NCBI GenBank assembly: GCA_951406725.2
Contig: OX597826.1
Location: forward strand, 58,900,001 to 58,964,000
Source: Octopus vulgaris
Lineage: Eukaryota
DNA: 64,000 nt
Direction of reading: 5' to 3'
A program made the translations under genes and the position numbers. Below are positions 5,105 through 64,000 of the stretch, one piece after another (the stretch's first letter is position 1; every line of letters begins with the position of its first letter). Below the pieces are notes generated by a model, which had not been told where the DNA came from, did no database searches, and was given only the letters and a program-made list of their open reading frames with translations.

Positions 5105-5520
5105 GAGCTGGCAGAATCGTTAGCACGCCGGGCGAAATGCTTAGCGGTATTTCGTCTTTCGCCTGCCGTTACGTTCTGAGTTCAAATTCAGCCGAGGTCG
5201 ACTTTGCCTTTCATCCTTTCGGGGTCGATTAAATAAGAACCAGTTACGCACTTTGGTCGATATAATCGACTTAATCCGTTTGTCTGTCCTTGTTTGTCCT
5301 CTCTGTGTTTACTTCCTTATGGGTAGTAAAGAAATAGGTATTTCGTCTGCCGCTACGTCCTGAGTTCAAATTCCGCCGAGGGCGACCTTGCCTTTCGTCC
5401 TTTCGGGGTCGATTAAATAAGTACCAGTTACGCACTGGGGTCGATATAATCGTCTTAATCCGTTTGTCTGTCCTTGTTTGTCCTCTCTGTGTTTAGCCCC
5501 TTGTTGGTAGTAAAGAAATA
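5105..5520 (+). mobile_element. SINE family C (GAGCTGGCAGAATCGTTAGCACG..GAGTTCAAATTCC), body in tandem
   Basis: tRNA-like A/B boxes; body 5146-5336 repeated at 5337-5520; many copies in window. Confidence 0.85.
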
Positions 5521-6061
5521 GATTAACTAACAATTATGCTTTATCACACACGATGATATGCAAATGCTGACAGTGGATGGGATCTATGATATCTAACTTC
5601 TTCCAGAAATCTTGTGCTGTAGGTTTATCTTCAAAATCTTTCATTAGTTGTTCGGACTTTGTCCTCAGCTAATATTCCTTGCACATAGCTATCTCACTTT
5701 GATTTCCGTGATATACTGAGCCATTTAGACAAATAATTCACTGACAATATAGTTCAGTTGATAAAGCCATGAGATTATTCATTATGGCGTCAAACATTGT
5801 GTAAGTTGTATTTCGCTTGTTTTGAAACCAAGAGGGAAGGTAATGACGATGACTCGTTGCAGAACCTCTCAGGCTGTATGAATGGAAAGAGGACGGTATC
5901 TTCACATTGGTGACCCATCAAGAACTCTTTCAATAGAAAGGGCTTCGATAAAGGCTCTCAAGATCCAGGTAATTATCTTAAACCTACAGGCGGTTTCGGT
6001 CAATCAACTCCTCTCTTATTGTTTTATTCACTTCATATGTCTCACCAGCTTATGCAAATTG

Positions 6062-27412: not shown

Positions 27413-27429
27413 TCTTGACAGTATAAATA

Positions 27430-27654
27430 TTGGGTTGGTGCATAATTATTGCGGCTTTCTTTCAACAAATTCTGTTCAATGAAAATAATAACGACATATA
27501 ACAAAAACATATTTAAATGATTATTCCGGAGCATATTCACCATCTACTTCAATTACTGCTTCCAATTTAAAGATGTTTTTTATTAAATATTGTTATTGTG
27601 TTTGTTGAATAAAATTTGTTGAAAAAAAGTCGCTATAATTATGCACCAAATCAA
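27430..27654 (-). mobile_element. Mariner-derived MITE (internal deletion derivative)
   Basis: TIR TTGGGTTGGTGCATAATTATTGCGG, similar to Hsmar1/MADE1-type TIR; TA on the left; minus strand encodes transposase-like C-terminus WEAVIEVDGEYAPE*. Confidence 0.8.
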
Positions 27655-27754
27655 CATGTGTGTATGTGTGCACGTCTGTGTGTGTGTATGAATATATATA
27701 TTTATGTATATGTTTATGCAATTCCAACAATTGTTAGATTTTTAAGGTGTGATC

Positions 27755-27836
<82 letters not shown>

Positions 27837-27848
27837 TTGTATACAGCG

Positions 27849-28301
27849 GTGGTGTAATTTCCATACGAGACTGTCACGTTAAGTTGACAGTATACAACCA
27901 CACTATCGCTCCACCACCGCTCTTTTCTCTTTGAGACATTTAGAAATTTAATATTTCTGAATACGGTAACCAGTGAATAGATTTCACTGTAAATATATAT
28001 ATTTTTGAAAGCTGGACAGGCACCTCAGTCAGCAGATCTCACTATCCTGGGCTGATGACGGGTTAAGACCCAGAAACATGCATGTCCTCAGGTGTGAATC
28101 TTGGCTGGTATGGGTGCTTGCCTCTACTTCACAAATGGAAGGACACAGAAAATGTGTCAAAGCCGACAGGAAGCGTTCGATGCTTCCTAGTGGTGTAATT
28201 CCCATACGGGACTGTAACGTTAAGTTGACAGTATACAACCACTCTATCACTCCACCACCGCTCATGTCTCTTTGAGACATTTAGAAATTTAATATTTCTG
28301 A
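27849..28301 (+). mobile_element. Retrozyme-like element: 341-nt monomer plus 112-nt direct repeat
   Basis: 27849-27960 repeated at 28190-28301; canonical HHR inside; between (GA)n and (TA)n; no meaningful ORF. Confidence 0.8.
28046..28092 (+). ncRNA. Canonical type I hammerhead ribozyme
   Basis: CCTGGG-CTGATGA-C-GGGT(TAAG)ACCC-A-GAA-ACATGCATGT-C-CTCAGG; GUC site, predicted cleavage after 28086; helix I extends via TCAC/GTGA. Confidence 0.9.
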
Positions 28302-28833
28302 TATATATATATATATGTATGTATGTACATGTATGAATTTATGCGTATTTGTATATATACATCGTGTATATGTGTATGTGTGTGCTAACATGTGTTCATG
28401 TATGTTTGAATATATCAATAATATACAATCATGCCCTGACGTCAGCAGCAAATCTTTATTAGAAAATATAAACCAACTTTGTAGATAATAGAAACAATTA
28501 GCGTTATATATTCCAACCACTGTCAGAAAATAGGGGACAGAAAGATATAATAGATATACAAAGGATTAATTGAATTGACCCCTTTTTTCACATTTCACTA
28601 ACTTTAAAAAGAAGTCGTATGCATAATCATATAAAATATATAACAAAGACCCGAAATGATGTATATATATAATAAATAACGAATTAGCCGTGAAAATATC
28701 AGTGTTGCGTGTTTTATTTATGACAAGGAAATAAAGAAATAGATAAATAGAACACCTAGAAAATAGGTCAGTATTGTGTTTAATAGGTAGATTAATAGAT
28801 GAAGAATAGGATTGATACATGTATGTGTGTATA

Positions 28834-40383: not shown

Positions 40384-40690
40384 TGGTATGACCACATTCC
40401 ATAGGCATTGGCTGAGAATGAGCGAGTGAAGCTCACGTGGGACATGATCACCTTTAAAGACTGTGGAGAATAATCGCCCAGATATCACAATGGTGAAGAA
40501 CGATACACATGAATGGACACACATGATAGACGTCGTTGTTACTTCTAATCAGAATGTTGAAATCTTTGAGAGAGTGAAAGTAGAGAAATACCAGGATTTG
40601 GTGAGGCAGGTACACGAGATACATGAAGTGACATTAAAAATTTACCCTTTTGATATTGATGCACTCGGAACAGTTTTAAACAATCTAGAT
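40384..40690 (+). pseudogene. REL endonuclease fragment of an R4/Dong-like non-LTR retrotransposon
   Basis: WYDHIP*ALAENERVKLTWD..ENNRPDITMV..IDVVVT..KVEKYQDL..P..ALG; PD..D..K..KY pattern. Confidence 0.75.
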
Positions 40691-41504
40691 GCAATGCCAG
40701 ATACATCACTCTTTTTTAAAAATCTTTTTGTTTCAGTCAGACTACAGCATACACGTGATCAGCAAAACAAACTTCACAACTTGCGAAGTAAACACAGCGA
40801 TGTCACTCAGTACATTGCCTTGTGAAAATGCCTGGTAGCTCTCACTGTGCAAGCAACCGTGTGCTGTCATGTGTTGGCGGCCTACAGTACTAGTCCAAGG
40901 ACGTTTTGATATCACCTCGTATATCATGTGAAATTGTTATGCTTACATTTATGCATTCATACGCACACACACTCACGCACATATATGTGTGTGTGTATAT
41001 GCGCATGGGCGTGTGTGCGTGAATATCTGAATATATAGATAAATATACACGCACACACATAAACGACAGACTTCAGCACAGTCTTCGTCTACCTAATTCA
41101 TTCAAAATTCTACTATAGCCTAGGGCTACAGTAGAAGACAATTACCCAAGTTACCGCGTATTCGGACTGATCCTGAAGTCACGTGGTTGGAAAATGAGCT
41201 TTTTGTCCTGTCTGTCGTGCTTGCGACTCTTCTCACACTTCATACATACATACATACATACATACATACATACATACATACATACATACATACATACATA
41301 CATACATGCATGCATGTATGCATTGATACATACATACATACATGCATGTATACATATATACATGCATGCATACATACATACATACATACATACATACATA
41401 CATACATACATACATACATACACACATATATACATACTAACATACATACATACATACATACATACATACATACACACATACATACATACATGCATGCATA
41501 CATG

Positions 41505-61823: not shown

Positions 61824-64000
61824 TGGACTAAGTTTCATGGCCTGTTTTAGGTTGACATAGGATTGGAAAATGTAATAAAAATGCAGTAGTACCTTTGACG
61901 TTTTGTACTGATATTATTCTGATTGCCACCAACACTCTGTTTAAGCAGAAAAATAAATATAAAACAACCTGGATGCACCCAAGTTCAAAGCAATGGCATC
62001 TCATAGATTATATTCTGATCAGAAAACGTGATATGAAAGACGTTTCTAGTGTTCAGGCCATGAGAGGAGCAGTAGACTAGACTGACCATCATGCAGTGCG
62101 TGGAATAATAGATTTTTTGATAATGCTTAAAAATCGACAGTCTGGTTCTAAGGTACCCAAAAATGTTGCAAACTTTAAATTATCAAGCAAACTTTAAATT
62201 ATCAACTTGCAAAGATTCAACGATGCTATAGAGAGTATCAATCTTCATCCAAACAAAATATGGGAAGATTTCAAAACAAAAATATTTCAGTCTACAAGTT
62301 CGTCAGTGGGATTTAAATCACATAAGTCCAGTGATTGGTTCTCAGATAGATCAGAAGAAATTCATGATTTACGTTTAGAAAAACAAGACTTAGGCAATAC
62401 ATTTCTTTCCCTGTCCTTGAACCCCAACTCAAACGAAGCTCGCAGAAAGCCGAAAAGGAAAGTGCAGACTGCTCTAAGGAAAATTAAACAGGAGTAGCGG
62501 AATGATAGAGAAAAGGGAGCACAAGAAGCAGCTGATAGAAATGATGCCAAGAGTTTGTACTTTTACGTTAATGATGTATATGGCTCAAAATCTTCTTCAG
62601 TGAGAACAGCAAACGGACGTTTGCTTCTGATTGACACCGCTTCTAATCATAAGCGCTGGGTAGAGTTGACATGGGGACGATAGAAAACATCGAACACCTT
62701 CCAGTTATAGAAGAAAGTGCATTTGAACCAGTTCTAAATGATATTTATTTAGCTGTGAATAAGCTGAATAACAATAAGTTTCCAGGGTCTGATGGAATCC
62801 GTGCAGAGGTTTTGAAATATGAGGGTGACAAAATGTTTGAACTCTTAAATATATTAATTTGTCACTGTTACAGAACTGAGAAAGTGCCTCAAGACTGGAT
62901 TGATACCATTTTAGTATCCTTGTATAAATCATGGCCAAAGGATCTGTGTGGTAATTTTCGCGGGATTTTGCGTTTGTCTGTGGTTGGAAAGGTGCATGCC
63001 CGCATTTTGTTAGAAGGTTTAAATACCTTCATAGTTCCAAATATAGTGCCTGAGTCTCAGTGTGGCTTTCGTTCCTACAAAGGCACAGCTGATTGTATCT
63101 TTACTGTCAGACAATTACAAGAAAAGTGCATTGAACTGAATCTTGCTCCAAACCATTGGTTTGTTGATTTGAACAAAGCATTCGATACTGTTAATCGAAA
63201 TGTTCTGTGGCTAGGTTGCCCCCAAAATTTGTAAACATGATCAGGGCTTTGCATCAAGATATGAAAGCTAGAGTTAACCTTGGCGGTAGGCTCTCTGGAT
63301 CTTTTGACGTAAAAAATAGAATAAAGCAAGGAAACCTTGATGCACTCACCCTCTTTGCAATATACTTTGTTGTTGTGTTGTCAAATGATTTTCAAAACTA
63401 CGAGGAGAGTATTTACATAAAATATCGAACAACCAGGAATGTTTTTAATCTGAACAGACGGAAATTCAAAACGAAGGTTTTTACTTCACTAATTAGGGAA
63501 CGTTTTTACGCTGACGGTTGCAATCTTGTCGGTCATTCTGAAACAGGCCTGCAATCTCTTGTATCTGCATTTGTCTCGGCTTGTGATGGTTTTGGCTTGA
63601 CCATCAACTTGAAAAAAGCAGTTGTAATGCACCAACCTGCGTATGGTGCTGTTTGTAACCCCACCAAAACTTTTGTGAAGTGTAAGTTACTTGAGGTTGT
63701 CAATTCGTTCATCTACGTTGGAAGCTCTGTTCAAAATGATAGAAATCTTGATACAGAAATACACCTGCAAATTCAAAGGGCAGCAAAAGTATTTGGTGAC
63801 TTGGTGTCACGCGTTTGGTGCCAGTGACATATAAATAAGAATACAAAGCTGGCTCTTTACAAATCATTTGCCTTACCATCCTTGTTGTTTTCCTTTGAAA
63901 CTTGGACTTGTTATGAAAGTCATTTTAAATTGTTAGAACAACTCTACCAAAAATACCTTCATCGCATTTTGAAAATTAAATGGAATTCTTTTACACAGAT
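61824..64000 (+). pseudogene. Decayed RTE-type LINE: APE endonuclease C-terminus plus reverse transcriptase, runs off the window
   Basis: TNTLFKQKNKYKTTWMHPSSKQWHLIDYIL..DH; PGSDGI; PESQCGFR; FVDLNKAFDTVNR; KQG; FYADG (YADD mutated); GLTINLKK; stops and frameshifts. Confidence 0.9.

Follow-up and report, generated by a model that had tools for sequence, protein, structure and literature searches.

Animal retrozymes without long terminal repeats (non-LTR retrozymes) are described as non-coding units of about 350 nt (350-390 nt in mussels), with a GC content under 45-50%, a type I hammerhead ribozyme with a 6-bp helix I and a short palindromic helix III, a stable predicted fold and head-to-tail repeats (PMC7229834, in part). 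The enzyme that mobilises them was left open between LINEs (long interspersed nuclear elements) and elements of Penelope-like type (Cervera and de la Pena 2020, PMC7229834, in part). For vertebrate retrozymes, Penelope enzymes have been proposed from co-occurrence and from homology to Penelope pseudo-LTRs (pLTRs), in a survey in which molluscs were unsampled (Li, Clavereau and Pollet 2026, preprint 10.64898/2026.07.22.740005). The element considered here lies in a window of 64,000 nt from Octopus vulgaris (the whole stretch analysed; contig OX597826.1, positions 58,900,001 to 58,964,000, assembly GCA_951406725.2). By every feature that can be tested from sequence it is an animal non-LTR retrozyme, sharing all of the traits listed above. 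It belongs to a family with a 354-nt unit that is probably reverse-transcribed and inserted in trans by a Penelope-like enzyme, presumably of the Neptune type, with reverse transcriptase (RT) and GIY-YIG domains. The insertion footprint that points to this enzyme is found without a homologous pLTR, in contrast to the vertebrate case; the many monomer copies are common to both.

Copies of this family differ from other animal retrozymes in being mostly dispersed, 5′-truncated and shorter than one unit, with few dimers, and in bearing a variant ribozyme core. A preliminary description of the locus had assigned it to the non-LTR retrozymes, and the assignment holds for a protein-free, head-to-tail hammerhead unit of about 350 nt with hundreds of dispersed copies. 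The 112-nt direct repeat reported there is indeed present, with a spacing of 341 nt and 7 mismatches, and is bounded by (TA)n(GA)n on the left and (TA)n on the right. The proposed 341-nt monomer, in contrast, does not extend to the family. The first 30 loci provide 45 distinct unit junctions (51 rows minus 6 from overlapping loci). Of these, 43 hold 13 bases that are absent from the window copy and one holds 21; only the window copy holds none. The family unit is therefore 354 nt and the shorter period is private to this copy. None of the other junctions has it, an outcome that the preliminary description had named as refuting its reading, yet the family itself is not refuted.

Exact matches to a 24-mer from the unit number 526 in the genome, against none for its reversed control; a further search gave 64 matches from the 40 scored out of 2810 candidates. 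The unit junction is seamless and constant among copies. Circular folding of two intact units gives z-scores of -7.7 and -6.6, with none of 40 shuffles per unit as low, and the window unit reaches -3.9. The hairpins listed earlier are all in the sequence, most of them also in the predicted fold. The window copy belongs to subfamily A, to which subfamily B is 81% alike (predicted circles of 354 and 365 nt, respectively). Two further lineages, of 357 and 362 nt, are colinear with the unit at about 50% identity, each bearing a hammerhead. The 362-nt lineage (lineage D: L270-L277, L285, L287-L292, L316, L320) is very young. In its hammerhead, U3-A8 replaces C3-G8 and the palindromic helix III consists of two pairs; the lineage holds LINEs with 1140-aa frames, in arrays mixing LINE-LINE and LINE-unit-LINE junctions. 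Contigs of four presumed RNA runs cover 28 of 29 bins, but as contigs reveal neither ends nor strand nor circularity, and their depth tracks the parts commonest in genomic copies, they speak neither for nor against expression.

The footprint of a Penelope enzyme has been described. Two internal RT start sites with a tail between them are used, both strands are nicked and targets are AT-rich (Frangieh et al. 2024, PMC11167929); across the group, inverted arms and a one-ended tail are general features (Craig et al. 2021, PMC8557442, in part). The same organization is found in the octopus family. The 24-mer matches, followed in list order, supplied 76 loci (83 fetched, 7 overlapping removed). In these, 123 of 141 arm ends fall into two clusters about 55 nt apart, at unit positions 50-64 (57 'short' ends) or 105-117 (66 'long' ends); the remaining 18 include AT-run noise and LINE junctions. 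Back-to-back arms are strictly paired: 44 of 52 pairs combine a long with a short end, one joins two long ends and seven involve another end (44 of 45 long-short, binomial p 1e-12). The 123 ends adjoin a TA repeat in 64 cases and sequence of at least 80% AT in 26, together 90. The window copy matches this pattern exactly, with a short-end stub, a long-end arm and TA flanks, and the short end of its stub recurs in L003, L011, L017 and L030. The element extends to the left of 27849, the start first proposed: the inverted stub lies there and includes part of the (GA)n run. A pile-up of ends at unit 203-207 proved to be an alignment artefact of subfamily B, gone with a B reference.

A young element in the same genome, with a 781-aa RT and GIY-YIG frame and a CX4CX2C linker, served as a control; by the description in PMC8557442 (in part) its sequence is of the Neptune type. 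Its two ends, on (TA)n, are separated by 38 nt; L066, its single two-armed locus, joins a short with a long end. Four of the long-end rows, at three loci, were assigned by eye. The paired retrozyme ends are the Penelope 'tail' signature, and constitute direct genomic evidence on the mover of animal retrozymes; two fixed ends with inverted arms are not described in the text of PMC7229834 (in part). Also shared with Penelope-like elements (PMC11167929; PMC8557442, in part) are (TA)n or AT-rich targets, 5′ truncation of the inverted arm and an AC-rich sequence at one start site. The octopus unit differs from these in having no open reading frame (ORF), in a tail of about 50-60 nt against 30-40, and in closing on itself at 354 nt. 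Mobilisation in trans, as foreseen in the preliminary description, is thereby supported, and Penelope-type machinery is very likely responsible. Several points weigh against this attribution. The 24-mer by which the 76 loci were chosen stops at unit 53 and confines the ends to 53 or further on, albeit not to two clusters or to their pairing, and the Neptune-type comparison has one two-armed locus. Furthermore, 42 GIY-YIG loci (of 6136 candidates), two Neptune-type families included, were compared with the unit and none resembles it in DNA sequence, so that the enzyme is deduced from footprints only. In the Neptune-type element itself (L061-L067, L069), the 3′ region is rich in repeats and TGACGTC and CCAAT-like words are numerous there; a scan of parts of the element showed no hammerhead pattern.

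The preliminary description presented the ribozyme as an intact, canonical type I hammerhead. Its layout, 6-bp helix I and palindromic helix III are confirmed, and the core letters C3-A9, G12-A14, A15.1-U16.1 and H17 are all present, in columns that are invariant in the alignment and across subfamilies only 81% alike. It is not canonical at positions 10.1 and 11.1, where C28059 faces A28072 and helix II should close. Among 93 copies taken, 19 gave no parse; the other 74 show C·A (46), U·U (15), U-A (11) or other combinations (2). In an alternative reading, a G-C pair is flanked by an extra base after A9 and another before G12; hammerheads of Penelope elements typically hold an extra base after A9 (PMC4209133, in part). 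A descriptor tolerating the mismatch, composed after the motif had been seen, gives a single match in the window and none in 200 dinucleotide shuffles.

Helix I and its extension are preserved by compensatory changes. Helix I is CCUGGG/CUCAGG in the window's subfamily A and UCUAGA/UCUAGA in subfamily B, and intermediates occur. Across 20 pairs, 92% of 560 cells are paired and nine pairs are altered on both sides, whereas controls with slid strands reach at most 43%. Because pairing is kept, and because U·U at 10.1-11.1 and U4C, the latter present in part of subfamily B, are natural hammerhead variants reported as active or tolerated (PMC3088659, in part), the predicted family ribozyme is likely to be active. 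A number of observations run the other way. G-C never occurs at 10.1-11.1 in the main parse, and the Rfam search proposed earlier found no hammerhead family in the window or the ribozyme region, either at gathering score or at E<=10, nor a hammerhead match in 15 related loci. The minimum-energy fold of the 83-nt region is not the catalytic fold, and shuffles fold as well as this region does by itself (z -0.64). The covariation alignment comprises 28 rows hand-picked for diversity out of the 93, and its changes mostly follow the split between subfamilies A and B and therefore count as few events.

Hammerhead-like patterns are abundant in this genome, 14,936 against 653 for the control. The most abundant family (L243, L260-L262) has U·U at 10.1-11.1 and closely spaced inverted pairs, with no ORF in the four loci looked at. 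At L195/L236, a LINE insertion is followed by a hammerhead-like stretch with a broken core and no BLAST kinship to the other hammerhead loci compared.

The template copied by the Penelope-type enzyme is a separate matter. Arms have a median length of 163 nt; four exceed one unit and the longest span 377-529 nt. Thirty-eight of the 123 arms extend to the predicted cut site and three end within 5 nt of it; a pile-up of 5′ ends there, expected if a linear cut monomer were the template, was looked for among the arm ends and not found. Since copying crosses the site without pause, the template is a circle or an uncut multimer, and the data fit both. A circular RNA intermediate is somewhat favoured. 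The competing possibility retains Penelope-type mobilisation and dispenses with the circle: the enzyme would copy a linear multimer left uncut, or else a transcript made by read-through, with a hammerhead that is slow or protein-dependent. It draws on the 10.1-11.1 mismatch, on U4C in part of subfamily B and on U at core position 3 in sister lineages, as well as on the short median arm. Uncut RNA is moreover the main substrate of the anole Penelope element (PMC11167929), and eight of nine Xenopus retrozyme dimers show no cleavage (preprint 10.64898/2026.07.22.740005). Loci with two intact ribozymes on one strand are few: only L004 among the A and B loci L001-L030 and L103-L185, with no long arrays of such units in the loci inspected, although two or more ribozymes occur in homologous lineages (L246, L208, L287, L290) and are more frequent in lineage D. 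An uncut template nevertheless appears unlikely in view of the compensatory changes that preserve helix I together with its extension, the seamless and constant unit junction, the arms of 377-529 nt, the natural variants cited above and, as an anecdote, one arm of L008 that terminates precisely at the cut site. Two junctions lie exactly at predicted hammerhead cut sites, in L319 and in L008 (1436-1507), and are possible traces of cleavage in vivo.

A less probable explanation, and an improbable one overall, is that the copies are only 5′-truncated pLTRs of an autonomous Penelope-like element missed by the searches. The homology of vertebrate retrozymes to pLTRs and the extra base after A9 would fit, and the comparison covered only the 42 GIY-YIG loci. 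Arms longer than one unit, however, run on into the same unit and not into an ORF, and no RT and GIY-YIG frame lies between repeats in the loci examined; no dispersed copy adjoins a Penelope ORF in any of them, an attachment that the preliminary description had named as the mark of a simple pLTR. The long coding DNA found between two units is a Tx1-like LINE, and matches to Neptune proteins occur in 8 of 200 loci at no common position. In a small sample, no autonomous partner with shared terminal sequence was found among the 42 GIY-YIG loci or 20 other hammerhead loci.

LINEs with preferred targets are known from the Tx1 clade, such as Tx1L in Tx1D, Tx1-Mar in Mariner-N4_AMi and Keno in U2 small nuclear RNA (snRNA) genes (Kojima 2015, PMC4494074, in part). 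In the octopus family, coding DNA was found inside the unit at two loci with distant 24-mer pairs: a 5.45-kb LINE and an element of 1.66 kb whose ends are similar and which has one frame, both at the same unit site and with a duplication of 16-17 nt. The LINE encodes a zinc knuckle (ORF1), an AP endonuclease and an RT (Pfam). The solved structure closest to the RT is L1 ORF2p (E 1e-41, against 1e-22 for R2) and the first Atlas match is a TX1 149 kDa cluster (0.96), so that on domain and structure matches the LINE is L1/Tx1-like. LINEs of this kind share with the Tx1 clade the combination of AP endonuclease and RT, the zinc-knuckle ORF1, one preferred site in another repeat and tandem arrays (PMC4494074, in part), and differ in that their target is a hammerhead retrozyme and that, in U2 genes, they insert at position +1.

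Seventy LINE 3′ flanks were collected by LINE sequence only: the 30 best of one search, and 40 of the 74 of another, chosen favouring long frames and array ends. Retrozyme units make up 34, further tandem LINEs 12 and U2 genes, entered at +1, 2; the other 22 are of other or unclear kinds. The retrozyme flanks divide among subfamily B (14, among them the query locus, a two-armed insertion that counts twice and a pair that is duplicated), a sister lineage (10) and lineage D (10); no LINE was seen in subfamily A. Kojima's rule for target preference is more than 20% of flanks of one type (PMC4494074, in part). The 34 of 70 are not a targeting rate because they are inflated by carriage, and the preference is loose since 22 flanks are unrelated. 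In each of the three retrozyme lineages, the insertion point is 26-32 nt before the core of the ribozyme. These lineages, the two element types and the differing duplication lengths show separate insertions, and in an RT tree of 27 segments, all from this genome, every main branch includes retrozyme-flanked copies.

Composites of LINE and retrozyme end at the retrozyme short or long site on (TA)n. Among 5′-truncated composites, two interrupted loci left out, six of seven have no unit upstream; this lack of an upstream target points to carriage and is the opposite of SINEU-3 in Mariner-N4_AMi (PMC4494074, in part). In L223, L224 and L292 the inverted arm contains LINE sequence, which in L223 and L224 is in both arms, with long and short ends. 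Insertion of a LINE into a resident copy would not produce these structures, suggesting that the composites moved as one piece; LINEs inserted alone (L236, L240, U2 sites) have plain direct duplications. It is therefore likely that the LINE is carried as retrozyme cargo. The converse, that the LINE is the autonomous partner mobilising the retrozyme, is highly improbable: the 34 retrozyme flanks, the intact 1140-aa frames of some LINE families and the naming of LINEs as candidates (PMC7229834, in part) speak for it, but solo insertions end after AATAAA with a direct duplication and no inverted arm, the ends of the retrozyme, 230-290 nt further on than that of the LINE, match those of LINE-free copies, and the two-end pattern is common to the Neptune element.

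Close relatives of these LINEs occupy U2 genes. In the Tx1-like insertions at G000:C23:43310100-43315900 and C3:20822000-20833500 (L266, L294, L263, L301, L302), full-length U2 snRNA genes are entered at position +1 and some 17 nt are duplicated; the RT of these LINEs is nearly identical to that of copies in the sister retrozyme. In L317 a U2 gene lies on the opposite strand, about 400 nt from the LINE end. A U2-type promoter in the unit, an idea taken from these sister LINEs, did not fit by spacing judged by eye.

A life cycle consistent with Penelope-type mobilisation can be outlined. Rare loci with at least two ribozymes would be transcribed, the hammerheads would cut out unit-length RNA and a host ligase would close the circle, by analogy with coral, mussel and axolotl retrozymes. 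A Penelope-type enzyme would then nick both strands of TA-rich DNA and, as the observed ends and their pairing suggest, begin copying inside the RNA at unit 53-63 on one strand and unit 109-116 on the other. Two 5′-truncated cDNAs would be joined back to back, or one lost, giving the structures observed. Tx1-like LINEs insert directly before the ribozyme with duplications of 15-30 nt, and the enlarged unit would be copied by the same route, as its end structure implies. A broader, three-tier model has about even chances. Here, the Penelope-type enzyme would spread a superfamily of hammerhead retrozymes, and a Tx1-like LINE clade specialised on the ribozyme stem base would exploit these in three ways: for a promoter, for self-cutting boundaries by which a 5.7-kb LINE RNA is released and perhaps circularised, and for carriage along a second route of transposition, driven by Penelope.

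The strict pairing of ends is a direct footprint that points to two nucleotide positions accessible to an in vitro Penelope assay that already exists. Provided that composites are copied in their entirety, a retrozyme can transport several kilobases of cargo and one class of retrotransposon can ride the integration route of another, which bears on part exchange between mobile elements and on RNA-templated insertion tools; under the three-tier model, the cargo of a natural retrozyme would amount to fifteen times its size. Natural variants of the hammerhead core under apparent selection (C·A, U·U and U-A at 10.1-11.1; U3-A8) are a further resource from this family. In the literature, no account was found of cephalopod retrozymes, tail-paired retrozyme ends or Tx1 elements in retrozymes; curated repeat databases, subscription papers or the supplement of PMC7229834 may hold one.

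The window copy itself (Table 1) is a decayed remnant with a single ribozyme and a deletion, a dead-end product and not a source; with only one ribozyme it is unable to release a unit-length RNA or circle. Its forward arm spans 1.3 units and is 93% identical to the intact copy L009. The LINE is absent from its site, and no frame of at least 120 aa covers the element.

Table 1. Parts and flanks of the retrozyme copy in the window (window positions)
Feature	Position	Strand	Remarks
(TA)n microsatellite, left flank	27758..27804	none	Likely insertion target (TA repeat at 64 of 123 arm ends, 76-locus set)
Inverted stub	27823..27844	-	Unit 42-63, 'short-end' arm; passes into (CT)n like many copies
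Forward arm	27845..28301	+	Unit 351-354, then 1-341, then 1-112/113 ('long end')
Repeat copy 1	27849..27960	+	Unit 1-112
Extended helix I, 5′ strand	28022..28045	+	Start (28022) homologous to the Tx1-like LINE site of related copies
Type I hammerhead variant	28046..28092	+	Parts in the following rows
Helix I, 6 bp	28046-28051 / 28087-28092
Core CUGAUGA	28052-28058
Helix II	28060-28071
GAAA	28073-28076
Helix III, palindromic	28076-28085
GUC, end	28086		Predicted cut after this position (unit 238)
Private 13-nt deletion site	28189..28190	+	Period 354 -> 341; one strand of a predicted stem lost
Repeat copy 2	28190..28301	+	Contains both end sites of the family (unit 53-63 and 109-116)
'Tail'	28253..28301	+	At the right end of the element only
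(TA)n, right flank	28302..28317

The rest of the window is non-coding and rich in microsatellites. An inverted repeat at 27427-27657, with 81-nt arms that are 80% complementary, is probably a miniature inverted-repeat transposable element. Broken non-LTR retrotransposon frames at 62653-63827 and 40448-40825 appear, by eye, RT-like and restriction-endonuclease-like, and a repeat resembling a short interspersed nuclear element lies at 5157-5521 as two 184-nt copies in tandem.
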